DNA of 64,000 nt from Ostreococcus lucimarinus (lineage: Eukaryota): assembly GCA_000092065.1 (NCBI GenBank), contig CP000596.1. The stretch is one strand, 5' to 3'. Below the pieces are notes generated by a model, which had not been told where the DNA came from, ran no database searches, and saw nothing but the letters and a program-made list of their open reading frames with translations. Positions within the stretch are counted from its first letter, which is position 1. Every line of letters begins with the position of its first letter. This document shows, piece by piece, positions 13,021 to 43,500 of the stretch. Made by a program: the position numbers and the translations under genes.

Positions 13021-13704
13021 TCACGCCGCCGCCGCGCTTCTCGAAGAGCGAGTCTCCACGAAGAGCAAGTCTTCATCCGTCCCGAACGCCGTCCGCGCCT
13101 CGTCGAACCGCGCGCGAGAGACCATCACGTCGCCCCCATCCGGCGCCGGGTCGAATATTCTAAATCGAATCACCCTCCCGCCGTCGACGTCCGCGCCTCG
13201 CACGACGACGAAGTGCCCGACGAAATCGCGCTCGCGTTCGCGTTCGCCCTCCCGCGCCGTCAACAACCGCGCGTCCACCAGAGCCACGCACCGCACCGCC
13301 CGCGTCGAGAGCGCTCGCGCGATGTCCTCCGCGCGCATCCTCGCGCGCACCACCGTCGAGGCGTCCGCGCGCGCGAAGAGCCTCGCCACGCGCTCGCAGT
13401 CCTTTATCAACTCGTTCTCGTAAAAGCCGTCGTTCGCGTACCGCGGATCGACGCCCGCGCGCGTCGTCACCAGCGTCGCCCTCGCGCCCGTCGCTCGCAC
13501 CGCGCGCAGCAAATCGATCGTCCAGCACGACCTCGCGCGCAGCGCCCGTCGCAGGGCGTCGCGCGGCGTCCCGCTCGCGCTCGCCGCCGCGCTCAGCCCG
13601 CAGTCCCACGCCGAGCGCTGTTCGCGCGGCGTCCAATCCGCCGCCTCGTCGCGCGCGCGCGCGGGAAACCGTCCAAACGTTCGGTCGAACGCGCGCGCCG
13701 TCAT
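13021..13704 (-). CDS. GUCD1 / plant GC1-like protein (guanylyl-cyclase-domain-containing, papain-like fold)
   Basis: ATG at 13704 (MTARAFDRTFG..). Motifs SAWDCGLSAA, CWTIDLL, GHFVVVRGAD and AFGTDEDLLFV are collinear with Arabidopsis GC1 / human GUCD1 (SWDCGLAC, IWTVDL, GHYVVICGYD, SFGTDEDLLL). Confidence 0.7.
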   Translation of the reverse strand: MTARAFDRTFGRFPARARDEAADWTPREQRSAWDCGLSAAASASGTPRDALRRALRARSCWTIDLLRAVRATGARATLVTTRAGVDPRYANDGFYENELIKDCERVARLFARADASTVVRARMRAEDIARALSTRAVRCVALVDARLLTAREGERERERDFVGHFVVVRGADVDGGRVIRFRIFDPAPDGGDVMVSRARFDEARTAFGTDEDLLFVETRSSRSAAAA

Positions 13705-14376
13705 GGCGCGCGCGCGCGCGGTCCGGTCGTCGTCGTCGCGCCGTCGCGTTCGCATCGTTCGAACACCGTTACTCGAAATGTTTGATTGATGAAGGCGCGA
13801 TTCGTCGCGCGAGGACGCGAAATGCGGCGCCGAGGCGCGCGCGCGACGCGCGCGACGGCGTCGTTCGCGCGCGTCGTCGCGCGCGGCGCGCGGCGCGCGG
13901 CGCGCGGCGGTGTGAGGAAATGGAGCGTCGACTCGCGCTCACGCGAGGCACGGGACGGCGGCGGCGGCGGCGAAGAGGAGCGACGCGCGCTCGCTCGCGG
14001 CGATGGCGGCGCACGCGCTCGAGCCCGACGCCGACGTGGTGCCGACGGCGCACGCGGCGCACGCGCTCGAGCCCGCGTTCGCGGCGAACGTGCCCGACGG
14101 ACAGAAATCACACGCGCCGGCGACGCGTCCGCGCGCGCGCGCCCGGGATCGATCGCTCACTGTTACTCATACCCGAATGTCCGAAATCGTCGTCGTATTT
14201 ATGCGCGACGCGCACCGTACTCGAGCGCTCTGAAAGGCCATCAGTAAAGCGTCGCGAGACGTCGCGTCCGACCGCCTCCCGCGCGCGCGTCGCACACCGC
14301 GACGCGCGCGCGCGACGCGACGGACGACGCGGAAGACGACACGGAAGACGGACGACGGACGCTCGAACCGCGAGCG

Positions 14377-15447
14377 ATGCCGACCGCCGCGATGACGGCG
14401 CGAACGAAGGACGAACGACGACGATTCGTCGTTCGAGGCGCGATCACGCGCGCGCCCTGCCTCCCGGAATTGAGCGCGAAGGCGACGCCGGAAGCGCGTA
14501 AGAAGGTCGATTTCAACGAGGTGATGAAGAAGGCGTCCGCGCGGGCGTTTCGCGGCGGCGTCGCGGGATTCGCGGCGGGCGTGATTCAGGTCGGGACGTT
14601 CATGTGGATGCGAACGGCGATGAATTATCAGTACGCGAACGGCGGGACGATGCTGTCGAGCATTAAGGCGCTGTATAAGGAGGGCGGAGTGCCGAGATTG
14701 TATAAGGGGATGTCGTTTGCGATCGTGCAAGCGCCGTTGAGCCGATTCGGGGACACGGCGGCGAACACTGGGGTGATCGCGGCGTTGGAGGCGTACTATC
14801 CGCAAATGCCGGTGAGCGTGATGACGGGATTCGCGAGCGTCGGAGGCGCGACGTGGCGGATCTTTTTAACGCCCGTGGACACGTTCAAGACGACGCTGCA
14901 AGTGCAAGGGAACGCGGCCTTCGCGTTGTTGAAGGATAAGGTGCGAACTGGTGGCGTCGGAGTGTTGTACAACGGCGCGGCGGCGAACTTCGCGGCGAAC
15001 TGGGTCGGCAACTATCCGTGGTTCGCGACGTTCAACTACTTGCAAAAGGCGATCCCGAAGCAAGACACGAAGTTGAAGAACAACGCGCGCAACGCTTTGA
15101 TCGGTATGGCGGCGTCGATCGTGTCCGATTGCATCTCCAACTCTTTGCGCGTCGTGAAGACGGTCAAGCAAACCTCTGGCGACGCCAAGTTGAGTTACAC
15201 GGGCGCCATCAAGGGTGTGCTCGAAAAGGACGGCATGAAGGGCTTGTTCGGCCGTGGATTGTCCACGCGCATCGCCACGAATGTGTTGCAAGCCATGGTG
15301 TTCTCTGTGGCGTGGAAGGCTATCGAGGAAGAGCTCAACAAGAAGGCTGAAGCCAAGAACGCCGCGCCGGCGAAGAAGGGCAAAAAGGCGTCCCTCACCG
15401 CCGCGCAAGTCGCCGGCGTCGGGTTACCCCCGCTCAGCATCGCGTAA
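14377..15447 (+). CDS. mitochondrial carrier family (SLC25-like) protein with N-terminal presequence
   Basis: 356 aa. Carrier-repeat signatures LTPVDTFKTTLQV and SNSLRVVKTVKQT are present. Six predicted helices follow an S/T/R-rich N-terminus. Confidence 0.6.
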   Translation: MPTAAMTARTKDERRRFVVRGAITRAPCLPELSAKATPEARKKVDFNEVMKKASARAFRGGVAGFAAGVIQVGTFMWMRTAMNYQYANGGTMLSSIKALYKEGGVPRLYKGMSFAIVQAPLSRFGDTAANTGVIAALEAYYPQMPVSVMTGFASVGGATWRIFLTPVDTFKTTLQVQGNAAFALLKDKVRTGGVGVLYNGAAANFAANWVGNYPWFATFNYLQKAIPKQDTKLKNNARNALIGMAASIVSDCISNSLRVVKTVKQTSGDAKLSYTGAIKGVLEKDGMKGLFGRGLSTRIATNVLQAMVFSVAWKAIEEELNKKAEAKNAAPAKKGKKASLTAAQVAGVGLPPLSIA

Positions 15448-15681: not shown

Positions 15682-16977
15682 TCACGCCGCGACCGGGTCG
15701 AGCTGCTTGTCCGTGAACACCCACTCGTCGCCCTTCTTGACGACGGCGATGCACTTGCTGCCGACGCGCCAAGTCGCCGTGGCGATGGGCGTCGGGTCAT
15801 ACAGGTACAGATCCGGGAACGCCTTTTGCAACGCCTCGGTGGCCTTCTTGGCGTGGTAGTGCGGGATGGTGTGGTTGATGTGATGCGCGACGTGCGTGCT
15901 GCCGATGCGGTGGTGCAAAAAGTCAAACACTGGCCCGTACGGGCGATCAATCGTCATAAACGCGCCCTTGACCAAGTTCCAGTCGTCGCCCTCAAAGTGC
16001 GGCACGTCCACGTCAGTGTGCTGCAACCACGTGTACAGGACGAGCCAAAAGTTGGTCACCATGTACGGTCCGACGTAGAGCGCCATGACGGTGGCGACAC
16101 CGCTGTGCGCCGCCCACGCCGCGAGCGCTCCCAAAACCGCCACGACGCCGACGTCGCTCTGCCAAACCTTCTTCGCCCACTTCCCCGGGAACAACGCGTG
16201 CTTACCCTTCTCGCCCATGAACGGCAAGAAGTGGTTCGTGTTCCCGCGAACCGGCCCACCGCTGGCGCCGGTGAGCAAATAAATCGGCCACCCCAAGGCG
16301 AACACTCCGACGAGGTTCAAAAACGTAAACGGCCCTTCGCCGAGCAACCCGCGCAACTTGAACATCACGTTCGCGTCCTCCGTCCCCAACCGCGCCGGCA
16401 CGTGCGTCTCTCCCTCGAGCACGTGATTAGTCCTCGAGTGATGCACCGCGTGCGACCGCTGCCACGAAAAATACGGCACCAACAACAACGAGTGCAGCGC
16501 GTATCCCACCGCGTCTTGAATCGTTTTATCGTCGCTAAACGCGCCGTGTCCGCACTCGTGCGCCGCGACCCAGCACCCGGTCGCCGCCGTTCCCGTCACG
16601 AACGCGTACGCCACCCACACCGGCCAATACGCCGCCGTCACCGGCACGCACGCCCACGCCAGCGCGCCGCACGCCAGCGTGATCGCCGTCGAGCACGCCG
16701 CGTACGCGAGCGACTTTCCCGTGTCCCGCTCGAAGCACTCCCTCGGGATCGCGCGCAGCACCTCTTGCATCGTCGGGAACGTCTTCGCCTCGGCGTTCAG
16801 CGCCTTGGCGTTCAAGCCCGAGCGCAGTTGTTCGTGTCGCGACGTGTCGTAGGTCGTCGCGGCGTCGGCGCGCGCGGCGCGGGCGACGCGCGCGCGATCG
16901 CGACGTGACGTCGTCGAGCGAGAGAACGCGGCGCGCGGGAGCGCGCGAGCGCGCGGGAGCGTCAGAGCGCGGAGCAT
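15682..16977 (-). CDS. plastid-type omega-6 (delta-12) fatty-acid desaturase, FAD6/DesA-like
   Basis: The N-terminal MLRALTLPRARALPRAAFSRSTTSRR looks like a transit peptide. His boxes are HECGHGAFS, HHSRTNH and HVAHHINH. Confidence 0.85.
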   Translation of the reverse strand: MLRALTLPRARALPRAAFSRSTTSRRDRARVARAARADAATTYDTSRHEQLRSGLNAKALNAEAKTFPTMQEVLRAIPRECFERDTGKSLAYAACSTAITLACGALAWACVPVTAAYWPVWVAYAFVTGTAATGCWVAAHECGHGAFSDDKTIQDAVGYALHSLLLVPYFSWQRSHAVHHSRTNHVLEGETHVPARLGTEDANVMFKLRGLLGEGPFTFLNLVGVFALGWPIYLLTGASGGPVRGNTNHFLPFMGEKGKHALFPGKWAKKVWQSDVGVVAVLGALAAWAAHSGVATVMALYVGPYMVTNFWLVLYTWLQHTDVDVPHFEGDDWNLVKGAFMTIDRPYGPVFDFLHHRIGSTHVAHHINHTIPHYHAKKATEALQKAFPDLYLYDPTPIATATWRVGSKCIAVVKKGDEWVFTDKQLDPVAA

Positions 16978-17143: not shown

Positions 17144-20100
17144 CTAGACGACGCGCGAGAGACGCATGGAACGTAAAATCTTATCCACGAGTTGTGCGAT
17201 CACGGTGTGGGATTGACGCTCGTCGCCGTGGTCGGTGAATAAAGACTTGAGCCTGGCGACGACGTCGTGGCGGATGATGAGCTCCTTGGGACGCTGGGCG
17301 TGCTCGTGGACGACGCCGAGGGTCTTGAGAAGGGTGATGCGGATCGTCGGTTTCGTGGTTGGGGAAGTGATGGCGTCCATGAGGGATGGGATGAAATCCT
17401 CGTTGGCCAGGGCTTGGCACAAGCGGGGGGATTTGGAGATGAGATCGAGCAAGGCTTCGAGGACGTTGGCTTGGGAGGTGGATTCGTCGAGGACCTCGAG
17501 GATGGAATCGATGGCGTCCGTCTCGAGCAAGCGAGCTTCGACTTTCCACGGTTCGATAGCGAGCCAGGAACCGACGGCATTGAGCGCGGAGAGTGTCCAT
17601 CCGGAGTTCACGGCTATGAGCTGGACGTAGGTGTCCAACGCGCCGTGCTTCTCCAAAATTTCGCGCGTTTTCCGACTCGTCGACGCCATGTCGCACAAGA
17701 GCGGCACGGCGAGCGTCATCGCGGAAGAGCGCGCGGTGGTCGCGACTGCGGCGGTGTTGACTTTATCGCCATTCGTGGCCGTCGACATCGAGCCATCTCC
17801 GTTCTTTTCGTCCCGAGCGCTGGCGATGATTTGAACGAGGATTGGAATCAAACCCGCCACGGCGGCTTGCTCCTGACGCTCCTTGTTCACCGCGCACAAG
17901 TTGTGCAACGCCTTCAGCGCCATCTCCCACGATTGCGCGTGACCACTTCGAAAGTTACCTTCGACGCATTTCACCAATTTGGGAATCGCTCCGGCGTTTT
18001 GCAACACATGAAATGCATTCGTTTGTTGAGACAGCAAGTGCACCAGACCGAGAATCTTCGTCGCCGTCGAGCGAGGGACGACGCTCAATTGCGCCAAACA
18101 TCCGTGAATAATTCTCACGTCCACGAGCGCCTTGGAGACTTCTGCGCATCCTTCACCACGTTTGGCGACACGATACAGCGTCTCGGCGACGAGTTCGCGG
18201 TAATACTTGCCCCCACTGGAACCTCCGCTGCGCGATCGACTGATCGTACTCGCGCCGCCGATTGATCCTGTCATCGACGAACCCCCCTCGCTGCGCGCGT
18301 CGTCGATATCGTCCGTGATCATCGCCGCATCTTCTAAACTCGCTGTGTGCGTTGCACCGAGCAAGGTGACAAGTTTCGGGAACAGGCCTGCGCTAGCAAG
18401 GGCAAGCGAGACGGTTTGAGCGAGTTGTTTCGGCAGCTGGTCGCCGCGCTCGATCTCCGCGGCAATATAAATCGCCCCGAGTGCGTATTTGGTGAGCTCG
18501 CGCCCGTTTCCGCTGTATCCGTAATCCAATACGTCGACTAATATGGGAAGCGCCCCGCATGCGACGAGACATCGTGTGAACACCGGTCCAGCCTTGGCGG
18601 TGGCGCGACACAGCCGCAACGCCGCGAGCTTGATCCTCATGCTTGAATCCTTCTTTTTCAGCACCTCTAAAGCCCTAGGTAGCACCGCAAGCGTGACGAA
18701 CGATGTGAGTATATCTCTGCTCAACATACTCGCTGCCGTGACACACTCTAACGCCACCGTTCGCATTCTTGCCGACGCCGATTCATTTTCTAAGACGTTG
18801 ACGAAAACGCCGCACGCTCGCGTGGTAAAGAGCGTCTCGTTCGCCACCAATACGCTCGTAGCGGTCTCCATCGCGCGTACGAATTCTGCACCAGCCTGTT
18901 CGGCGTCATCTATCGCCGCCACATCACTCGTTGACGTGCCGAACGCATCCTTCAAGCGATCGACGATTGAGATGAGCGATTTGTTGAAGTCGATTTGCGC
19001 CTTTGTCACGCCCGAGTCGCTCTTCATAAAGTTCCCCAAATCGCTCTTCATAAAGTTTTCTAAGTCCTTTTGCGAGCTTGAGCGCTCGCTCGCGGCTATT
19101 AGGGGTGACGAATTGGCGGCTGCGGCGTCGTCCGCCGCCGTGACGTCGCCGTTCACGCCAACTTTTGCCATTTGATCGATGACTTTAACGATGACGCCTT
19201 CCTCCGCGTCGTCATTCTGCGTTCGCCCACCGCTCGCGTCTCGTTTGGTCCACGTCTCGGCGAGCACTTTGTGCTCGTCCATCAACCACGTGTGGTTGAT
19301 CAACTCCTCCGCGCTCGGTCGATCTTTCGGGTCCCTTTTGAAGCACAACAACAAGAAATCCCGCAACGCCTCTGAAATCCCCGTCGGCAGCGGCGGGTGC
19401 TCGTCGCGTACGATCCTAAACAACGCCGGCATGGGATCGAGATCAAAATACGGCGGGTTGCTGGTCAATAACTCTATGATAGTACATCCCACGCTCCATA
19501 TATCCGCCGCCGCCGTGACGCTCCGCATTTCGATCACTTCCGGCGCCATCCAATACGGAGTCCCCAGCGCCTTGTCGCCCTCGCCCTCACCCTCGGCTCG
19601 CGTCCCATCGCCAATCCCGCGCCCATCGCTCGCATCACCATCGCTTCCTTCCGACCTCCCCTCCGCCCCGAACACACCACTCAACCCATCCCCCGACGCC
19701 CGTCCGCCCTTTGTCGCCACGCCGAAATCCGCCAACTTCACCACTCCCTCCTTCGTCGTCAATATATTCGCCCCCTTGATGTCCCTGTGCACCACTCCTT
19801 GCGAGTGCAAGTACGCCAACCCTCTCAACACCTGCGCGACGTACACCGCGCACAGGCTCTCCGGGAACGCCCCGAATCGACTCGGATGTACCGTTCGCGC
19901 CAGCGACCCATTCTCCGCGTACTCCAGCATGATGTACAAGCACTCCTCCACGCGCACCGCGCCCTCATATTTCACGATATTCGCGTGTTCGAGCCTCGAC
20001 AGCAGCTCCACTTCGCTCGTGATGCGCTCGAGCTGCTCGACCGGGACGCCGCGCAGCGGAATCTCCTTCACCGCGCAAATCGACCCCGTGCGCTGGTCGA

Positions 20101-20209
20101 CGGCTTTGTGCACGCGCGACGTCGCGCCGGAGCCGATGAGCTCGCCCAGGATGTGGTTACCGACGCGTTTCACCGCGTGGTGCGGCGACGCCGGCGGCGA
20201 CGCCGGCAT
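17144..20209 (-). CDS. MAP3K-epsilon / Cdc7-like Ser/Thr kinase with ARM/HEAT repeats
   Basis: ATG at 20209 (MPASPPASPHHAVKRVGNHILGELIGSGATSRVHKAV). Kinase motifs HRDIKGANIL, DFGVA and GTPYWMAPEV, then about 650 aa of helical repeats. Matches plant M3KE1/2 and S. pombe Cdc7 architecture. Confidence 0.8.
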   Translation of the reverse strand: MPASPPASPHHAVKRVGNHILGELIGSGATSRVHKAVDQRTGSICAVKEIPLRGVPVEQLERITSEVELLSRLEHANIVKYEGAVRVEECLYIMLEYAENGSLARTVHPSRFGAFPESLCAVYVAQVLRGLAYLHSQGVVHRDIKGANILTTKEGVVKLADFGVATKGGRASGDGLSGVFGAEGRSEGSDGDASDGRGIGDGTRAEGEGEGDKALGTPYWMAPEVIEMRSVTAAADIWSVGCTIIELLTSNPPYFDLDPMPALFRIVRDEHPPLPTGISEALRDFLLLCFKRDPKDRPSAEELINHTWLMDEHKVLAETWTKRDASGGRTQNDDAEEGVIVKVIDQMAKVGVNGDVTAADDAAAANSSPLIAASERSSSQKDLENFMKSDLGNFMKSDSGVTKAQIDFNKSLISIVDRLKDAFGTSTSDVAAIDDAEQAGAEFVRAMETATSVLVANETLFTTRACGVFVNVLENESASARMRTVALECVTAASMLSRDILTSFVTLAVLPRALEVLKKKDSSMRIKLAALRLCRATAKAGPVFTRCLVACGALPILVDVLDYGYSGNGRELTKYALGAIYIAAEIERGDQLPKQLAQTVSLALASAGLFPKLVTLLGATHTASLEDAAMITDDIDDARSEGGSSMTGSIGGASTISRSRSGGSSGGKYYRELVAETLYRVAKRGEGCAEVSKALVDVRIIHGCLAQLSVVPRSTATKILGLVHLLSQQTNAFHVLQNAGAIPKLVKCVEGNFRSGHAQSWEMALKALHNLCAVNKERQEQAAVAGLIPILVQIIASARDEKNGDGSMSTATNGDKVNTAAVATTARSSAMTLAVPLLCDMASTSRKTREILEKHGALDTYVQLIAVNSGWTLSALNAVGSWLAIEPWKVEARLLETDAIDSILEVLDESTSQANVLEALLDLISKSPRLCQALANEDFIPSLMDAITSPTTKPTIRITLLKTLGVVHEHAQRPKELIIRHDVVARLKSLFTDHGDERQSHTVIAQLVDKILRSMRLSRVV

Positions 20210-20388
20210 GGCGCGTCGGAGAGTGCGTTCGATGCGATTGAGATTGGCGACGACGGTTGAAAATTTGAGATTTCGGCGGAGGCGCGGTCGGCGACGGATG
20301 CACGCGCGATGCGGGACGCGCGCGACGCGAACGCGCGTCACGAACGAAATGAAAAGACTCGCATGAGATTACACGCGAGATGGCGCGG

Positions 20389-23300
20389 TTAGATCTCGGC
20401 CGAGGTGGAGACGTCGAGGATTCGACGGCGAATGACGCGGTCGGCGACGGCGAGTTGGGCGTCGGCGACGGAGGCTCGAACGGCGCGAATCGCGGATGCG
20501 GTCGTGGCGATGATGGCGATCGCGCCGAGAGGCGATTTGGGGGGTAACGTTCCCGCGCGAATGTGCGCGGAGAGGGCGTAGATGGCGTACACGGTGGGGA
20601 TGGCTTGGAAGACGTAAAAGGCGACGACGGCGAGGCGTTGCGACGCGGCGTACGCGACGGTTTCGTAGTGAGGAAAACCGCTCGCCGTTCGGGCGAATGT
20701 GCGGAAGTGTACCGTGGCGTCGCGGAGTTCGGTGATGAGCGAACACGCGATTGCGACGACGAAAACGTCGTGGTGCAACGCGAGGAGCGTGACGGCCAAA
20801 GCGACGACGCGGCGAAACATCTCGCCGCGCTCGCGGCGGGCGCCGTCGACGACGACACGACCGACCATCACCATGACGTACACCTTGAGTAACTCCACCG
20901 CAGCTAACTTTCCAGCCTGCTTTCTTTCGTTCGGAAGTATCCACGAGATGGCGGCGGCGCGCACGTTTTGCGTGTCGTCGATGAAGCGATACGCCGCCGT
21001 GCCGACGGCGGCGGCGACGACTGCCTTGGTCAACGGGACGCTGAGCGCCAAGGAACGTTCCATGAGCGTGCCGTGTGCGCTCGATGCTTCGGCGAGCTTG
21101 ACTTTACTAACCTTTTTACCGAGCTGCGGCAACGCCACGCTCGAGACGACGGCGGCTAAGAAGGTCGCGCAGCTAAAGACTGCGACGACGCCGACGAGCA
21201 GAGGCACAGCCATCGGGAGCATTTCCGTCACTGTTGAAGGATTGCGCTGCGCGAACATCGCACAGATGGCCACTACCACGGCTAAGTATTGAAATTCCGG
21301 CGCGATGGACGAGGTAGAAACCTCGCTTCTAGATGCATCGTCGCTCTTCTTGACCCACGTCATTTGCAAATCGTAAATCAACTTGTTCGCAAACGCAGCC
21401 TCGCAATACGCAAAGTAAAACTCAAACATGCGCAAAAACTTTCGTGAGTAGCCCATAGAAAGGATTCGTTGGGCGTGATGCATCATACGCTCGCGCCACA
21501 ATCGCAAAGTGACGGCATAATGCAAGCCGATATCGTCGTATCCCTCGAGCACGAGACCACGCGGCGAAGCGCTCTTCATCGCCCCCACCGACGGCAAGTG
21601 GCCACCTGGGAAAATGTACGCACGAATGAAGTCGCTTTCACTGTTGCAGTATGACTCGTAGCGGCCGTCCGGCATAGTGATGACTTGGATCGCGGCTCGC
21701 CCGCCGGGTTTCAGCACTCTGTGCACGGTGCCAAAGAACGTCGGCAAGTGTTCGTGTCCGACCGCCTCAAGCATTTCAATCGACACCACCTTGTCGAACG
21801 TTCCTTGCACATCGCGGTAGTCACAAATGACGATGTCGATCAAGTGTGACAAACCGGCGGCTTTGACGCGCGCCGTTGCTTCGGCGTGCTGCTCGTGCGA
21901 CAGTGTCAAACCAGTGACATGGCAATTCTTCTCGCTCGCCATGCGAATCGCGCACGTCCCCCAACCGCAGCCAATCTCAAGCACGCGATCGCCTGGCTTA
22001 ATACCCGCTCGAGCGATCATGGCGTCTATCTTTAAATACTGCGCCTCTTCCAAGTGCTTTTCTTGGGCCTCGAACGTCTTGAACTTCTTCAAAACGTCTA
22101 CGGACATCGCAGCGTCGTCGATAGCGCCGTGAATGGCGCTCGAGTACAACATGGTGTCATCCAAAAACAGCTTGTAGAACTCGTTTCCAGCGTCGTAGTG
22201 GTACTCTATGTTTTTACGAGATCCTTCTTTCGTGTTACTTAACGCCTTGTGTGCTGCCATCTCCATTTGCGCTCCTACCCAGTTAACCGCCTCCGTGAGG
22301 AGACCCACTGGGTCGAGACGCATCTTCGGCTTACAGCTCTCCGTCTCTGCGCCAGAAGCCGCGGGATGGCCTTTGCAAATCATGTCCATGAACCCAATTA
22401 AATCCACGTCGAAATCTCCGTTCATATAACACTCACCAAGACCGATATCTGCGCGCAAAATCGTTTGCATGAAGAGTCTTTGGTTGAATACCGTCATGGT
22501 AATCGTCTCCGACGACGCGTTGGCCTCTTTACCCATCATAAGACGTTCGCTTCCATCCGGTAAAATCATGCGGAGTCGTTTGTCGGCTGGTAACCACCCC
22601 ACGCACGCGCGCTGGAAAAGCGGTAAGACCATCTTCGTGCTCATGGACAACTTTGGATCGCACGACCGCGGCATCCACGGCACGGATGACTTGCCGAGCA
22701 TTTTGTCCACACAATCAACCGCTGATTTGATACCATCCTCGTGAAATCCGTAGCCGCACCACGCGCCGCAAAACCAAACCCGGTCTTTACCTTGTAACGC
22801 CTTGATCTCCTCCTGCGCCGCGATCGCGGCTTTGTTAAATAACGGATGCGCGAGCGTGACTTTGTGTTCGACCGAGCCTGCCTTCGGCTCGCGCGGCGGG
22901 TTCAGCGTGACGAACAAATCCTTCGTCCCAGGGGCGAGGTTTTGCAACAAGTTGACCCAGTAAGTCACACAAACGCTTCGATTTGCGGCTTCTTCGGCGG
23001 GAATGCCTAAGCGATCGCCGCGAAGGCAGTTCCACGATGCCCAGGCATCTTTGTTCCGCGGCATCATTGTTTCGTCGGTGTGCAAATACACGTCATTCTC
23101 TTGATACTTCACCGCCGACAGAGCCGAGACTTCTTCCTCGCTCGCAGCTTTGCCAAGTATTTGTAACGCTTGATCGCTATGGCACGCGAAAACGACGTCG
23201 TCGAAAACCTCGGTGGACTCCTGAACTTTTCCCTTGGCGTCCTCTGTCTTAAAAGTCACGCTCACGCCCCCCGCCACGCGGTACACCTTGGTCACGTACG

Positions 23301-24072
23301 CGCCCTTACGCACGTCTTTGAGCTCGCGCTCAACGGCGTCGACGTAAGCGCTCGATCGACCACTGACGACTCGCCAGAGAGGTCGCTCGATGATGTTTAA
23401 TAAGTGATGGTTCACCCAAAATCGTACGAGCGTGCGCACTGGGAACGCCATCGCGTCGTCGTCGCTGCAGCTCCAAATCGCCGCACACATCGGCACCACG
23501 TACGACTCTTGAAAGAACGCCGAGTACTTGCGAGCTTTGAGGTACTCACCCAAAGAGACGTCCGCGAACTCGCTCGCGCGTTCCGGCGCCAAAACCTCTG
23601 GCGCCTCGCGACCAAAACGTAGAATCTCCCGAATCATATTCAAAAACCGTCCGCTCATCGCGTTCGACTTTTGCGCGAACACGCCTTTCAGTCCTATGCT
23701 CCCCCACTCGACGTCTCCCGTGGACAATGAAAACGACATGTCGCTCGGTTCGCTCTCGACGCCGAGCTCGCCGAACAGGCCCACCAGGTGCGGGTACGTC
23801 GTCAGGTTGAACACCTGGAAGCCCAAATCCACGTCGCACTTCGCCGTGCTCGAGTATTGCGTCAGTGCGTGTCCACCGAGCTTCGTCGACGCTTCGAACA
23901 GCGTCACCGCGCCGCACGAGGGCGTCGAGGGCGCGCTTTGCGCTTTTACACTTTTTGGTCCGCCGCCGGCGTCGTCGGCGTTCTTTTGGAGTAAATACGC
24001 CGCCGACAGGCCGCTGACGCCGCCGCCGATGACGGCGACGCGTTTACCGCGTGTGGTGGCTTCGTCCTTCAT
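20389..24072 (-). CDS. FAD-dependent amine-oxidase domain fused to cyclopropane-fatty-acyl-phospholipid synthase (plant CPA-FAS type), with an extra C-terminal multi-TM domain
   Basis: 1227 aa. N-terminus MKDEATTRGKRVAVIGGGVSGLSAAYLL (dinucleotide-binding oxidase). Middle NIEYHYDAGNEFYKLFLDDTMLYSSAIH...VLEIGCGWGTCAIRMA...SIEMLEAVGHEH (CFA-synthase SAM methyltransferase). The last roughly 330 aa are seven or more hydrophobic helices with no family I recognise. Confidence 0.8.
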   Translation of the reverse strand: MKDEATTRGKRVAVIGGGVSGLSAAYLLQKNADDAGGGPKSVKAQSAPSTPSCGAVTLFEASTKLGGHALTQYSSTAKCDVDLGFQVFNLTTYPHLVGLFGELGVESEPSDMSFSLSTGDVEWGSIGLKGVFAQKSNAMSGRFLNMIREILRFGREAPEVLAPERASEFADVSLGEYLKARKYSAFFQESYVVPMCAAIWSCSDDDAMAFPVRTLVRFWVNHHLLNIIERPLWRVVSGRSSAYVDAVERELKDVRKGAYVTKVYRVAGGVSVTFKTEDAKGKVQESTEVFDDVVFACHSDQALQILGKAASEEEVSALSAVKYQENDVYLHTDETMMPRNKDAWASWNCLRGDRLGIPAEEAANRSVCVTYWVNLLQNLAPGTKDLFVTLNPPREPKAGSVEHKVTLAHPLFNKAAIAAQEEIKALQGKDRVWFCGAWCGYGFHEDGIKSAVDCVDKMLGKSSVPWMPRSCDPKLSMSTKMVLPLFQRACVGWLPADKRLRMILPDGSERLMMGKEANASSETITMTVFNQRLFMQTILRADIGLGECYMNGDFDVDLIGFMDMICKGHPAASGAETESCKPKMRLDPVGLLTEAVNWVGAQMEMAAHKALSNTKEGSRKNIEYHYDAGNEFYKLFLDDTMLYSSAIHGAIDDAAMSVDVLKKFKTFEAQEKHLEEAQYLKIDAMIARAGIKPGDRVLEIGCGWGTCAIRMASEKNCHVTGLTLSHEQHAEATARVKAAGLSHLIDIVICDYRDVQGTFDKVVSIEMLEAVGHEHLPTFFGTVHRVLKPGGRAAIQVITMPDGRYESYCNSESDFIRAYIFPGGHLPSVGAMKSASPRGLVLEGYDDIGLHYAVTLRLWRERMMHHAQRILSMGYSRKFLRMFEFYFAYCEAAFANKLIYDLQMTWVKKSDDASRSEVSTSSIAPEFQYLAVVVAICAMFAQRNPSTVTEMLPMAVPLLVGVVAVFSCATFLAAVVSSVALPQLGKKVSKVKLAEASSAHGTLMERSLALSVPLTKAVVAAAVGTAAYRFIDDTQNVRAAAISWILPNERKQAGKLAAVELLKVYVMVMVGRVVVDGARRERGEMFRRVVALAVTLLALHHDVFVVAIACSLITELRDATVHFRTFARTASGFPHYETVAYAASQRLAVVAFYVFQAIPTVYAIYALSAHIRAGTLPPKSPLGAIAIIATTASAIRAVRASVADAQLAVADRVIRRRILDVSTSAEI

Positions 24073-40596: not shown

Positions 40597-40827
40597 CGCG
40601 CGTCACCGCGTCGCCCCGGCGTCGCGCCGCGCGCGCGTCGCGTCGCGTCGCCGCGCGTCCGCGTCTCGCGCGCCGGTCGGTCGGCGCGCGCGGGCGGCGC
40701 GGTCGGTCGCACACGCATTCAGTCAGACACCACATACACCACACACCACACATGGGCGCACACTTCATAATATACGTCACGCGTATCGTGATAGTCTTAA
40801 TCACATCCACAATGCGTTGACTCGCAC

Positions 40828-40841
40828 GTATATCGATATAC
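40828..40841. promoter_or_regulatory. 14-bp perfect palindrome GTATATCGATATAC in an AT-richer island upstream of HSP70
   Basis: It lies about 110 bp upstream of the HSP70 ATG inside a locally AT-richer stretch (about 40740..40845). TATA-like, possible core promoter. I saw no clear nGAAnnTTCn heat-shock element. Confidence 0.35.
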
Positions 40842-40948
40842 CGATTCCGACGCCGCGCGCCGTCGCGTCGCGTCGCGTCGCGTCGCCGCGGCGCGCCGGC
40901 GCGCCGGCGCGAAGGCGCGGCGTCGGCACAACTTTACGCGCGAGAAAC

Positions 40949-42623
40949 ATGAGCAAGGCCGAGGGACCGGCCATCGGCATCGATTTGGGCACGACGTATT
41001 CATGCGTCGGCGTCTGGCAACACGACAGGTGCGACGCGCGACGCGACGCGACGCCACGGCGACGATCGCATCGCGCGCGGACGGCGCGCGATGGGCGTTT
41101 CGGCGATGCGCGGCGAACGATCGCGGCGCGGGCGCGCGCGATTCGACGCGAACGACGACGGTGACGCGATGGGACGCGAGAAGGAAATATGCGCGAGCGA
41201 ACGGCGGCGCGGGCGCGGGCGACGCGCGGTCGCGCGCGACGGGAGACGCGAGATCGGCGCGCGCCGTCGACACCATCTTTCGAAGCTTCTTGGACGTTCT
41301 CGCGGCTTCGGAGGGCCGTGTGTTGAATTGTATGACGCGGCGAGACGCGCGCGACGTCGGACGTCGGGGGGGGGTCGGGCGATCGCGCGAGGGCGCGCGA
41401 GAGCGCGAGAGCGAAGACTGACGAATGTGTGACGCGTGTGTCTCGTTTGACGCAGGGTGGAGATCATCGCGAACGACCAGGGGGCGCGAACGACGCCGTC
41501 GTACGTGGCGTTTACGGATAGCGAACGCCTGATCGGGGACTCGGCGAAGAATCAAACCGCGATGAACCCGATGAACACGGTTTTCGACGCGAAGCGTTTG
41601 ATTGGACGCAAGTTTTCTGAACCGCAAGTGCAAGCGGACATCAAGGATTGGTCGTTCAAGGTCGAAGCCGGCGAGGCGGACAAGCCGATGATCGTCGTCG
41701 AGTTTCACGGCGAGAAGAAGAAGTTTTCCGCGGAGGAGATTTCTTCCATGGTGCTCGTCAAGATGAAGGAAGTCGCGGAGGCTTACCTCGGTAAGGACAT
41801 TAAGAACGCTGTCGTCACCGTGCCGGCGTACTTCAACGATTCTCAGCGTCAGGCGACCAAGGATGCCGCCGTCATCTCTGGTTTGAACTGCTTGCGCATC
41901 ATCAACGAACCGACCGCCGCGGCGATCGCTTACGGTCTGGACAAGCGCCACGAAGCCAACGGCGCTGAGAAGAACGTTTTGATCTTCGATCTCGGTGGAG
42001 GTACCTTCGATGTGTCTTTGTTGACCATCGAAGAAGGCATCTTCGAAGTCAAGGCGACGGCTGGCGACACGCACTTGGGCGGCGAAGATTTCGACGCTCG
42101 CTTGTTGCAGCACTTCATCGCTGAATTCAAGCGCAAGAACAAGAAGGACATCACGGGCAACCCGAAGGCACTCCGTCGTCTCCGATCTGCTTGCGAACGC
42201 GCCAAGCGTACCTTGTCTTCCACGGCGCAAACGTCCATCGAAATCGATTCCTTGTTCGAAGGCGTCGACTTCTACACTTCCATCACCCGCGCTCGCTTCG
42301 AAGAGCTCTGCATGGATTTGTTCCGCAAGTGCATGGACCCGGTCGAAAAGACGCTTCGCGATGCGAAGATGGACAAGTCGCAAGTTCACGAGGTCGTCCT
42401 CGTCGGCGGATCCACGCGCATCCCCAAGGTGCAACAGCTCTTGTCCGATTTCTTCAACGGCAAGGATTTGTGCAAGTCCATTAACCCCGATGAAGCCGTC
42501 GCCTACGGTGCGGCCGTCCAAGCCGCTATTTTGTCCGGCGAAGGCAACGAAAAGGTGCAAGACTTGCTCTTGCTCGACGTTTCCCCGCTCTCCATGGGTC
42601 TCGAAACCGTCGGCGGCGTGATG

Positions 42624-42655
<32 letters not shown>

Positions 42656-42824
42656 GACAAAGAAGGAACAAGTGTTCTCCACTTACTCCGACAACCAGCC
42701 GGGTGTGTTGATCCAAGTCTTCGAAGGCGAACGCTCCCGTACGCGCGACAACCACTTGTTGGGCAAGTTCGAGCTCTCCGGCATTCCGCCGGCGCCGCGC
42801 GGCGTCCCGCAAATTAACGTTTGC

Positions 42825-42856
<32 letters not shown>

Positions 42857-43328
42857 GTCCGCCGAAGACAAGGGCTCTGGCCAAAAGAACAAGATTACCA
42901 TTACCAACGACAAGGGTCGCTTGAGCAAGGAGGACATCGAGCGCATGGTCCAAGACGCGGAGAAGTACAAGGCTGAGGACGAGGAGCACAAGAAGAAGAT
43001 CGAAGCCAAGAACGCCGTCGAGAACTACGCGTACAACATGCGCAACACCATGAACGACACCAACGTCGGTGGCAAGTTGGATGCGGACGACAAGAAGACG
43101 ATCGAAGACGCCGTCGAGGCCGCGATCACTTGGTTGGACGGTAACCAAACCGCCGAAGTGGACGAGTTCGAGGACAAGCTCAAGGAATTGGAGGGTGTGT
43201 GCAACCCGATCATCAGCAAGATGTACCAAAACGCTAGCGGTGCTCCGGGCGCCGACATGGGTGGTGCTCCGGGTGCTGAAGATGCCGGTGGTGCCTCCTC
43301 TGGCCCGAAGATTGAGGAAGTCGATTAA
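40949..43328 (+). CDS. HSP70: cytosolic heat-shock protein 70, join(40949..41028,41456..43328)
   Basis: Exon 1 [26 protein letters not shown] plus split codon R. Exon 2 [21 protein letters not shown]...[12 protein letters not shown]... ends GPKIEEVD and stop. Joined in phase 2 across a 427-nt GTGCGACGCG...GAAGACTGACGAATG...GACGCAG intron. Confidence 0.9.
41029..41455 (+). other. spliceosomal intron, introner-like (427 nt) inside HSP70 codon 27
   Basis: Exact restoration of the universally conserved HSP70 N-terminus (..[17 protein letters not shown]..). Its composition and 3' module match the other introns of this family. Confidence 0.9.
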
Positions 43329-43500
43329 GTCTTCTCCTCGCGATTCCATTTTTGAGTACTGAAACGAAACGTTGTTCCGCGCCCGTGGCGGAGTTTTAGC
43401 CAGGTTTGCCAGCTTAGGATGCAATCAACACAATATCCATTCACTTAAGTCGCTTCGCTCGTGTCTTCGCACGTTCTTTTTACACAGTCTAATCTCTCGT

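Follow-up and report, generated by a model that had tools for sequence, protein, structure and literature searches.

The gene at 20389..24072 (-) of the window, by which we mean the whole 64,000-nucleotide stretch of DNA that was analysed, is a single intron-less nuclear gene of Ostreococcus lucimarinus. The last 310 or so residues of its product, fused in frame, form a divergent helical domain of the TLC fold. We consider it probable that the product is one membrane-integral, three-domain enzyme that modifies lipid acyl chains, in which the C-terminal part (the tail) acts as a non-catalytic anchor and lipid-binding scaffold. No description of this three-domain layout with a TLC tail was found in the reference annotation or in the literature searched.

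The ORF list contains a complete coding sequence, running from ATG to stop without an intron at exactly 20389..24072 (-), which encodes 1227 amino acids, as an earlier note on this DNA had described. That note divided the protein into an oxidase, a CFA synthase and a polytopic tail, and this division agrees with the Pfam and NCBIfam domains and with the helical tail. The motifs that it quoted were all located, namely the dinucleotide-binding (Rossmann) motif from residue 14 (GGGVSG, within VIGGGVSG), the SAM motif VLEIGCGWG beginning at residue 697, and SIEMLEAVGHEH at about residue 764.

Residues 11–906 are identical at 877/877 aligned positions to XP_001422042.1 from O. lucimarinus CCE9901 (BLASTP, cluster membership), while a full-length protein, 99% identical, is encoded on an 83.8-kb ENA contig. 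The NCBI reference model XP_001422042.1 consists of 877 amino acids and is flagged 'partial'. It ends at residue 906, which is exactly the end of the methyltransferase, and is therefore without the tail. It also has a gap of 19 amino acids, where 57 nt (22045..22101 (-), residues 658–676, VDVLKKFKTFEAQEKHLEE) are spliced out as an intron. The ORF is open throughout this stretch, and its amino acid sequence is conserved both in orthologues and in more distant homologues, which suggests that it is most likely coding rather than an intron. The reference protein model looks homology-limited.

The FAD-binding amine-oxidase-like domain is N-terminal, at about residues 11–460 (22693..24042 (-)), as located by Pfam and by homology to Cupriavidus. 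Pfam matches are to Amino_oxidase (PF01593) at residues 19–384 (E 1.4e-12) and to NAD_binding_8 (PF13450) at residues 14–103, and the closest solved structure is that of the amine oxidase LkcE. It is followed by a CFA-synthase-type SAM methyltransferase at residues 518–906 (21355..22521 (-); PF02353 and NCBIfam). The CMAS family PF02353 matches residues 617–900 with E 1e-77, and the NCBIfam CFA-synthase models, which are bacterial, align with residues 518–910 with all scores under the equivalog cut-offs. Because this alignment starts at residue 518, the N-domain of CFA synthase is also present. The best relatives in the PDB are the bacterial CFA synthases 7qos, 6bqc and 5z9o, and mapping onto E. 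coli CFA synthase gives S645, E769, Q796, I798 and Y852 as the equivalents of the bicarbonate site.

The bacterial counterparts of these two domains are separate genes of an operon, as the earlier note stated. The FAD-dependent oxidoreductase of a Cupriavidus operon is 45% identical to residues ~55–452 (E 7e-100), and the CFA-synthase-family protein from Cupriavidus aligns from end to end with residues 481–894 at 36% identity. The N-terminal domain is homologous to the oxidoreductase that occupies the UfaD position in the bacterial operon of the furan-fatty-acid genes. Judged by these matches, the first two domains are a eukaryotic fusion of two bacterial-operon genes, encoding a UfaD-like oxidoreductase and a CFA-synthase/UfaM-type methyltransferase.

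The tail is confirmed, at the level of coding sequence, as a translated part of one 1227-residue protein. Five independent assemblies, which cover three orthologues (99%, 74% and 67% identity), all carry it in frame, and comparison of the contigs indicates that gene order around the three orthologues is conserved. Indels in the tail among orthologues are in-frame only. The dN/dS ratio of the tail is 0.37 in an unsaturated pair (L002/L005), with a range of 0.37–0.65 as against 0.04–0.05 in the methyltransferase domain; by this measure the tail is under purifying but relaxed selection. We take the tail to be genuine because its frame is preserved in orthologues and its dN/dS lies below 1. The earlier note had proposed a search for the extension in orthologues, and it is indeed present, with 88 of 121 algal homologues having a tail of at least 240 amino acids after the CMAS motif. 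The same layout is seen in MMETSP transcripts of relatives typed 'complete' (P0018, P0032), and a metagenomic fragment (P0001) covers the CMAS end together with the tail.

The length of the ORF is by itself poor evidence, because spurious antisense ORFs of 300–400 amino acids occur several times in the window, which is GC3-rich (ORF list). The earlier argument that such a long frame is unlikely to arise by chance is weaker than was claimed: with A=T=0.2 and G=C=0.3, one stop is expected in every 31 or so codons rather than in every 40, and P is ~2e-5 for 330 open codons. The frequency of long spurious ORFs, and the end of the reference model at residue 906, could be taken to mean that the extension is outside the protein, as a separate downstream gene, a read-through due to an assembly error, or a segment that is spliced out. 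This is very improbable. The junction is in frame in all five assemblies and is spanned by the metagenomic fragment, and the reference model is not only partial but also drops the conserved in-frame 57-nt stretch. At coding-sequence level, the open frame, the purifying selection with its in-frame indels, and the complete transcriptome ORFs of relatives settle the earlier concern that the frame might conceal a stop or an intron, or might take in a separate gene.

The C-terminal domain comprises residues 920–1227 (20392..21315 (-)) and is missing from the reference annotation. It is polytopic, as had been noted earlier: there are 6–7 hydrophobic segments after about residue 906 on the Kyte-Doolittle scale, and the AlphaFold model of the tail has eight long helices and one short helix. 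The HMM and topology analysis that the earlier note proposed thus upholds its description, and the domain, to which it gave no family, has a TLC (ceramide-synthase-like) fold. The helices form a transmembrane helical barrel as in solved ceramide synthases. The AF2 models are confident over the whole barrel, and the TLC fold is reproduced when the alignment used for the model holds no Pfam-recognisable TLC sequence.

Profile evidence for homology of the tail to TLC family members is moderate. The direct match of the tail to Pfam PF03798 is weak (13.0 bits, E 0.1, under the gathering cut-off of 24.6), and no PF03798 match at E <= 0.01 was found in it or in any of the 15 closest tails. PF03798 matches 10/26 aligned tails, with a best E of 2.3e-8. 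Iteration of HMMs on tails trimmed of their CMAS end increased the number of matches from 26 to 43, and the iterated HMMs reach chlorophyte tails that are PF03798-positive. When the window's clade together with the next clade was compared with the chlorophyte tails by hhalign, the result was E 1e-5 and a probability of 82% over ~120 core columns. The sequence identity of the tail to solved TLC proteins is 7–9%; Foldseek against the PDB gave no significant match (best E 0.38), and no TLC protein was retrieved when the tail alignment was used as a profile to search PDB sequences.

Other membrane families were considered. ELO fatty-acid elongases have a structurally related fold, and were rejected: a motif search of the tail found no HxxHH motif, and they are not its closest structural match. 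A DUF1295 or ICMT-like membrane methyltransferase was also rejected, since the tail has no family HMM match (no DUF1295/ICMT Pfam match at E <= 1) and, as the earlier note said, no RHP-type motif. That note had further suggested that the tail could be another fused partner from the bacterial stress operon, of the DUF1295/ICMT type or a transporter. The first two domains do come from neighbouring operon genes, but in the one operon examined the sole polytopic member is an MFS transporter, for which the hhalign probability with the tail is 0.06%, so that the suggestion is unsupported there and is the least probable of the origins and roles discussed here.

The three-part layout occurs widely among algae and is not peculiar to the Ostreococcus gene. 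The same order, with tails of 270–420 amino acids, is found in Chlorella, Micractinium, Coccomyxa, Chlamydomonas, Volvox, Guillardia and Hemiselmis, and two homologues, from Myrmecia bisecta and Ostreobium quekettii, carry the automatic UniProt name 'TLC domain-containing protein'. These other algal tails are 12–17% identical to the window tail, and many of them are recognised by Pfam as TLC. Many also end in a dibasic K-x-[H/K]-x-x, whereas the window tail ends in TSAEI. This conserved C-terminal end (RRRILDVSTSAEI, residues 1215–1227, 20392..20430 (-)) is seen in alignments A1 and A3; the pattern R.R(I/V)..(V/L)(A/S)TSA(E/D)(I/V) is common to the window's clade and the next clade, and 24/88 tails end in TSA[DEQ][VI].

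The catalytic residues of CerS6 and CLN8 have been described (PMC11919693; bioRxiv 10.64898/2025.12.18.695077). The corresponding columns were mapped using a CLN8 alignment and an 86-sequence L-INS-i alignment, at 13–25% identity, with helix boundaries taken from the AF2 model. They place a helix hairpin at the TLC active-site region, at residues 1086–1116 (20725..20817 (-)). The chlorophyte-tail profile aligns to CLN8 with H138, E167 and R204 in register, and the window tail has R1087, R1088, E1115 and Q1157 at the positions of CLN8 H138, H139, E167 and R204 respectively. In the window's clade the nucleophile His position is occupied by R, K, I or G and the second His by R, N, H, Q or Y; Volvocales have Q at the nucleophile position, and cryptophytes have G, V or R. 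All 12 members of the window's clade keep the acidic E1115 (the CLN8 E167 / CerS6 D242 region), and 63/85 tails have Glu there. The CLN8 R204 position is Q, R or V in the window's clade and R or K in 61/85 tails. On these alignments, the Ostreococcus tail has other residues in place of both the His that acts as acyl-transfer nucleophile and the conserved Arg, and retains only the acidic residue.

The clade has conserved motifs of its own, comprising LHxD (1099–1102), ASGFPHYET, KVSKVKLxEAS and the C-terminal TSAEI, and these suggest a function more specific than anchoring. The tail may have a non-canonical active site. The tail would then be a working TLC-type acyltransferase within a trifunctional protein, loading or moving a chain from acyl-CoA or between lipids, and in Ostreococcus the catalytic set could be for example H1100/H1101-D1102 together with E1115. 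CerS6, CLN8 and TLCD1 are acyl-CoA-dependent and act via an acyl-His intermediate (PMC11919693; bioRxiv 10.64898/2025.12.18.695077); the full set of His, Glu and Arg/Lys at CLN8 H138, E167 and R204 is intact in 20/85 algal tails, such as those of Chlorella, Micractinium, Bryopsis and Ostreobium; and (L/I)HxD and E1115 are conserved in the window's clade. We nevertheless rate an acyltransferase as rather improbable, in view of the varied residues at the nucleophile position and the change of the conserved Arg to Gln or Val in the clade. The clade-specific LHHD at 1099–1102 is moreover at the hairpin turn in the model (helix 163–182, loop 183–185 in tail numbering), ~13 residues from the canonical mid-membrane His, and the tail evolves ~10 times faster than the methyltransferase domain.

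The loss of the catalytic residues and the high dN/dS of the tail relative to the methyltransferase domain could also be read as signs of a decaying relic, which serves merely as a generic multi-pass anchor with no lipid-binding role. Some homologues have tails of 75–145 amino acids only (104 in Emiliania huxleyi), and the plant enzymes have none (PMC3132707). However, about eight helices and a length of 306–335 amino acids are maintained across the window's clade, several loop and terminal motifs are invariant, AF2 is confident over the entire barrel, and eight helices are more than a simple anchor needs. A relic is therefore unlikely, if a little less so than a working acyltransferase.

Our preferred reading remains that the Ostreococcus tail is most likely a non-catalytic anchor and lipid-binding scaffold, because the acyl-transfer nucleophile is missing. 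The methyltransferase would add a SAM-derived carbon to the cis double bond of a chain still esterified in a membrane glycerolipid, and the FAD domain would then desaturate the product, in the manner of UfaD in furan-fatty-acid synthesis by bacteria. Candidate products are a cyclopropane fatty acid and a methyl-branched acid from which furan fatty acids are made. The TLC domain would carry out no acyl transfer, and would tether the two soluble catalytic domains to the bilayer, probably that of the ER; it may also bind or present lipid acyl chains in its central hydrophobic cavity. Since the protein lacks an N-terminal presequence, with the Rossmann motif starting already at residue 14, its N-terminal domains are expected to face the cytosol. 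A membrane anchor is not strictly required, since the homologues in plants arrive at membranes or lipid droplets even though they have no TM domain (PMC10940516, PMC3132707).

A bolder and doubtful extension is that the TLC barrel is a functional partner of the other domains, lifting a lipid acyl chain from the bilayer (or taking it from acyl-CoA where His/Glu/Arg are kept) and passing it to the methyltransferase and FAD desaturase. If this were true, the algal synthase of furan or cyclopropane fatty acids, which has long been sought, would have this single polypeptide as its membrane-integrated core, with the Ostreococcus version a pseudo-acyltransferase, and the protein would be a natural 'Rosetta-stone' fusion tying TLC domains to the modification of lipid-bound acyl chains.

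One of the nearest known systems is in plants. [quoted passage not shown] The Arabidopsis fusion AT3G23510 has been named UFAMD1 and localises to lipid droplets (PMC10940516), while Sterculia CPS is associated with microsomal membranes, and the substrate of the plant enzyme is oleate esterified to phosphatidylcholine (PMC3132707). The active cotton CPS1/2 share with the window protein Ser, Glu, Gln, Ile and Tyr at the positions of E. coli C139, E239, H266, I268 and Y317 (PMC3132707). The membrane tail is foreign to the plant enzyme, again as had been noted: the cotton CPSs are two-domain proteins of 865–873 amino acids (PMC3132707) with no polytopic region, whereas the window protein has ~320 extra residues in the form of the TLC-fold membrane domain.

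In bacteria, the furan-fatty-acid genes ufaD, ufaO and ufaM are RPA2571-2569 in R. palustris and RSP1091, RSP1090 and RSP2144 in R. sphaeroides. In R. palustris the adjacent genes ufaM, ufaO and ufaD are sufficient to make furan fatty acids on phospholipids, and UfaM and UfaD both work on chains bound to phospholipid (PMC7380195). The window protein contains a UfaD-like and a UfaM-like enzyme as domains of one polypeptide, whereas in bacteria ufaD and ufaM are individual genes separated by DUF1365 (UfaO). No match to DUF1365 was found within the 64-kb window (tblastn, best E 0.61); in Chlamydomonas, CFA1 is strongly induced by singlet oxygen along with a DUF1365 gene (PMC4067076). The bacterial operon examined has no TLC domain, unlike the window protein.

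Finally, the tail differs from the TLC acyltransferases in that its nucleophilic His, second His and conserved Arg are all replaced. Whereas CerS6/Lac1, CLN8 and TLCD1 are standalone proteins, the TLC domain of the window protein is fused behind ~900 residues of soluble enzymes.

The reading frame on the minus strand at 20389..24072 is confirmed exactly by the ORF listing: it runs from ATG to stop and encodes 1227 aa, and the motifs quoted from it in the earlier note are found where that note placed them. Pfam matches Amino_oxidase at residues 19-384, NAD_binding_8 at residues 14-103, and CMAS (the methyltransferase domain of CFA-synthase type) at residues 617-900 (E 1e-77), all on the minus strand. 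The CFA-synthase models of NCBIfam, none of which reaches its equivalog cut-off, give an alignment spanning residues 518-910, so that the N-domain of bacterial CFA synthase is present too. Beyond about residue 906 there is a hydrophobic C-terminal region (the tail), with 6-7 hydropathy peaks, much as had been described. A motif search also agreed with the description in finding no RHP motif in it, and HxxHH is likewise absent.

The reference protein, XP_001422042.1/ABP00336.1, is listed as 'predicted protein, partial [Ostreococcus lucimarinus CCE9901]', has 877 aa, and belongs to the 90%-identity cluster of our ORF. When aligned to ORF residues 11-906 it is identical at 877/877 aligned positions. 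It ends exactly where the CMAS domain ends, at residue 906, leaving out the last 321 codons, and the 3' part of the gene, 20389-21354 (-), is thus unannotated. It also treats 57 nt at 22045-22101 (-), corresponding to residues 658-676, as an intron. This stretch starts with GT, ends with AG and is in frame; however, the peptide that it encodes is conserved across orthologues and more distant homologues, and for this reason the intron is almost certainly not real but a product of homology-guided modelling. The reference gene model for O. lucimarinus is truncated and wrongly spliced, with no tail annotated, and the present result amends it.

The earlier note argued from the length of the open frame that the tail could hardly be there by chance. 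The argument is weaker than stated, since the GC3-rich window contains several antisense ORFs of 300-400 aa. Many long ORFs rich in Arg, Ser and Ala (190-395 aa) oppose or overlap real genes in this GC3-rich stretch, for example at 19179-20366 (+), 17267-18265 (+) and 20157-20944 (-). The 875-aa ORF at 40797-43424 (-), which matches Pfam PF10712 'NAD-specific glutamate dehydrogenase' (E 3e-131), runs antisense to a clear HSP70 gene at 41457-43328 (+) (PF00012, E 4e-247), and looks like an antisense-ORF artefact rather than a second gene.

Because length is weak evidence here, the tail was tested by conservation. An independent 83.8-kb ENA contig encodes a 99%-identical protein, also of 1227 aa. 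Eleven orthologues have 67-74% overall identity and lengths of 1216-1283 aa, with tails of 331-352 aa, and one metagenomic fragment covers the end of CMAS and the first 170 residues of the tail. In codon alignments the indels in the tail are all in frame and there are zero stops. For two orthologous loci that form an unsaturated pair (L002/L005, dS about 0.25-0.33), dN/dS by the Nei-Gojobori method is lowest in the CMAS domain (0.04), followed by the linker (0.07) and the oxidase (0.19), and reaches 0.37 in the tail. The conserved frame, the in-frame indels and the dN/dS values together indicate that the tail is coding and constrained, though evolving about 10 times faster than the methyltransferase.

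The window is otherwise composed of ordinary eukaryotic nuclear genes, closely packed, including listerin, a mitochondrial carrier, a fatty-acid desaturase, a kinase with ARM repeats, a SET-domain protein, HSP70 and citrate synthase; an Rfam scan of the whole window gave zero matches. The order glycosyltransferase, fusion gene, kinase-ARM, fatty-acid desaturase, mitochondrial carrier is the same in 2 orthologue contigs. The desaturase gene (PF00487), at 15682-16977 (-), sits two genes from the fusion gene, and its orthologues (PF00487) are at 13219-14496 in locus L002 and 13286-14374 in L006. A separate gene, an intron or an assembly artefact behind the tail is rejected, given the open frame and conserved gene order in the orthologues and the purifying selection on the tail.

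The same extension, which the earlier note proposed to look for in other green algae, is widespread among algae. Counting from the conserved FxFYFxYCExxF motif of CMAS, 88 of the 121 homologues retrieved have at least 240 further residues. They include Chlorella, Micractinium, Coccomyxa, Chlamydomonas, Volvox, Gonium, Bryopsis, Ostreobium, Guillardia and Hemiselmis. Some are MMETSP transcriptome ORFs typed 'complete', which provide indirect transcript evidence, from relatives, for the three-part fusion. A few homologues are longer still: P0032-P0040 have tails of 590-706 aa that the tail HMM weakly matches a second time, which could represent a duplicated C-terminal region, P0078 (Elliptochloris) has 2054 aa, and one longer-tailed homologue bears an extra protein-kinase domain. 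Such very long tails, or the added kinase domain, may be gene-model fusions.

The only direct Pfam match of the tail is a sub-threshold one to TLC, the ceramide-synthase-like fold (PF03798, 13 bits, E 0.1), and single-sequence searches with the tail alone against two very large protein collections returned only close orthologues or fragments (1 match and 5 matches). Several of the fusion homologues carry precomputed PF03798 matches, and two are named 'TLC domain-containing protein'. Tail HMMs were built after trimming the last 25 CMAS residues, to guard against carry-over. The trimmed HMM of the window's clade (the close orthologues and the window's own tail) picked up a second clade, with E-values from 1e-20 to 1e-8, and two more rounds recovered chlorophyte tails that are PF03798-positive. 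In the resulting alignment of 26 tails (A1), 10/26 match PF03798, with a best E of 2.3e-8; the window's clade and the next clade, 15 tails in all, give no such match at E <= 0.01. In hhalign those 15 tails align to 11 chlorophyte tails with E 1e-5 and a probability of 82%, over a core of about 120 columns. A profile comparison of A1 with A2, which is a subset of it, is not independent and was set aside. AlphaFold2, given A1, models the tail as nine helices with pLDDT 86.2 and pTM 0.84. The 26-tail profile had no match among PDB sequences, and a Foldseek search of the model against the PDB gave nothing significant (best E 0.38). The conclusion is that the tail has the TLC fold in a divergent form. 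Membership of the ELO family was considered and rejected, there being no HxxHH motif in the tail.

TLC proteins have recently been shown to be acyl-His acyltransferases, namely CerS6 (PMC11919693) and CLN8 (bioRxiv 10.64898/2025.12.18.695077). The nucleophile of CerS6 is His211, which forms an acyl-imidazole intermediate aided by His212 and Asp239/Asp242 (PMC11919693). In CLN8 the acylated residue is H138, equivalent to H117 of TLCD1, and E117, H138, H139, E167 and R204 are described as 'conserved across the TLCD acyltransferases' (bioRxiv 10.64898/2025.12.18.695077). The best match of the chlorophyte-tail profile in the PDB is CLN8, at a marginal E of 0.047, which served for residue mapping and not as proof. 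CLN8 H138, E167 and R204 align to the chlorophyte motifs H(Y/F)T, LLSE and fRlvPH.

Residues were tallied over 85 tails in an independent L-INS-i alignment of 86. The H138 position is His in 26/85, E167 is Glu in 63/85, and R204 is Arg or Lys in 61/85. All three are retained in 20 tails, from Chlorella, Micractinium, Bryopsis, Ostreobium and others. At the H138 position Volvocales have Gln, cryptophytes have Gly, Val or Arg, and the window's clade has R/K/I/G. The window has R1087, R1088, E1115 and Q1157 at the positions of H138, H139, E167 and R204. R1087 and E1115 are 28 residues apart, as are their counterparts in CLN8 and the chlorophyte tails, and this equal spacing supports the register. 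With H138, H139 and R204 replaced, the canonical acyl-transfer machinery is predicted to be absent from the Ostreococcus tail, on a mapping made through low-identity alignments. The clade-specific (L/I)HxD at 1099-1102 lies at the turn of a helix hairpin in the AlphaFold2 model, not at the canonical mid-membrane site. Two further conserved motifs, likewise within 20389-21315 (-), are specific to the clade: KVSKVKLxEAS (residues 987-997), in a loop that is modelled at low confidence and includes a short helix, and ASGFPHYET (residues 1130-1138), of which the SGFPH portion is common to the next clade.

The C-terminal ends fall into several types. Tails of the window's clade end in an invariant TSA(E/D)(I/V), at 20392-20430 (-) in the window, and the form TSA[D/E/Q][V/I] is found in 24/88 tails, comprising this clade and the next. 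In a further 28/88, chlorophyte and cryptophyte, the final residues are K-x-[H/K]-x-x or KKxx, and in about 10 others K-x-R-x-[D/E]. These lysine-bearing ends resemble dibasic ER-retrieval signals, and for the chlorophyte and cryptophyte proteins with K-x-[H/K]-x-x or KKxx this resemblance points to the ER as their location.

When plasmids were searched by tblastn for the oxidase domain, many alpha- and beta-proteobacterial replicons matched. The genes on Cupriavidus pinatubonensis p2 run FAD-dependent oxidoreductase, DUF1365, CFA-synthase-family protein, chalcone-isomerase family protein, MFS transporter, DUF3833, SDR and NTF2, so that the earlier note was right to call the oxidase and the CFA synthase operon neighbours in bacteria. 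Over residues ~55-452 of the Ostreococcus protein the FAD protein shows 45% identity, and the CFA-synthase-family protein, along its full length, 36% identity to residues 481-894. A third operon partner as the origin of the tail finds no support in this one operon, where the sole polytopic partner, the MFS transporter, is unmatched by the tail profile; a DUF1295/ICMT origin is likewise rejected, the tail having neither a Pfam match to that family nor an RHP motif. DUF1365 has no match within the 64-kb window.

The neighbouring genes ufaM, ufaO and ufaD of R. palustris are enough to produce fatty acids of the methylated and furan types on phospholipids, with UfaD desaturating the methyl-branched monoene (PMC7380195). 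The two-domain fusion of Arabidopsis, AT3G23510, is named UFAMD1 and is found on lipid droplets (PMC10940516, PMC13247531). C139, E239, H266, I268 and Y317 of E. coli CFA synthase correspond to S645, E769, Q796, I798 and Y852 in the Ostreococcus protein. Cotton CPS1/2, proven producers of cyclopropane fatty acids (PMC3132707), share this S/E/Q/I/Y pattern, and the sequence is therefore compatible with either a cyclopropane product or a methyl-branched furan precursor. In Chlamydomonas, CFA1, CFA2 and a DUF1365 gene are SAK1-dependent and induced by singlet oxygen, CFA1 among the strongest (PMC4067076); by analogy, a role in photo-oxidative stress is plausible for the Ostreococcus protein.

The protein is thus a single polypeptide of three domains, whose TLC-fold tail lacks the TLC nucleophile and is under relaxed yet purifying selection. 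The methyltransferase and then the FAD desaturase would act on an unsaturated acyl chain kept esterified in a membrane lipid, which is how the bacterial and plant relatives operate. The TLC domain would hold both enzymes at the bilayer, and its central cavity may bind or present acyl chains. The Rossmann motif begins at residue 14, leaving no room for a presequence, and a cytosolic orientation is accordingly expected for the soluble domains.

Furan fatty acids in fish and plants are said to originate from algae and plants. Two alpha-proteobacteria are the only organisms in which their pathway is established (PMC7380195), and for plants homologues have been put forward by similarity only (PMC10940516). 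For the first two steps of the pathway, or else for a cyclopropanation, the fusion gene and its many algal relatives are the obvious candidates. Automated annotation misses the TLC domain in Mamiellophyceae, because the reference model is truncated and mis-spliced and Pfam is blind to the domain. The natural fusion links the TLC fold with enzymes for acyl chains that are bound in lipids, and hints, in a way that can be tested, at how such enzymes gain access to a double bond deep within the bilayer. As the fused domain lacks the nucleophile in most lineages, it also offers a comparison series of active-like and dead-like TLC domains.

This is not a new kind of system. Each of its three building blocks is from a known family. 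The two-domain fusion was already known from plants, and the three-domain layout is present in dozens of public algal sequences, some labelled TLC automatically; a literature search for 'cyclopropane fatty acid synthase' with 'TLC domain' found no paper linking them. The protein is a plant-type CPS/UFAMD enzyme (oxidase plus methyltransferase) with a fused TLC-fold domain, catalytically degenerate in O. lucimarinus, and it is this built-in membrane domain that distinguishes the algal fusion proteins from the plant CPS/UFAMD enzymes.
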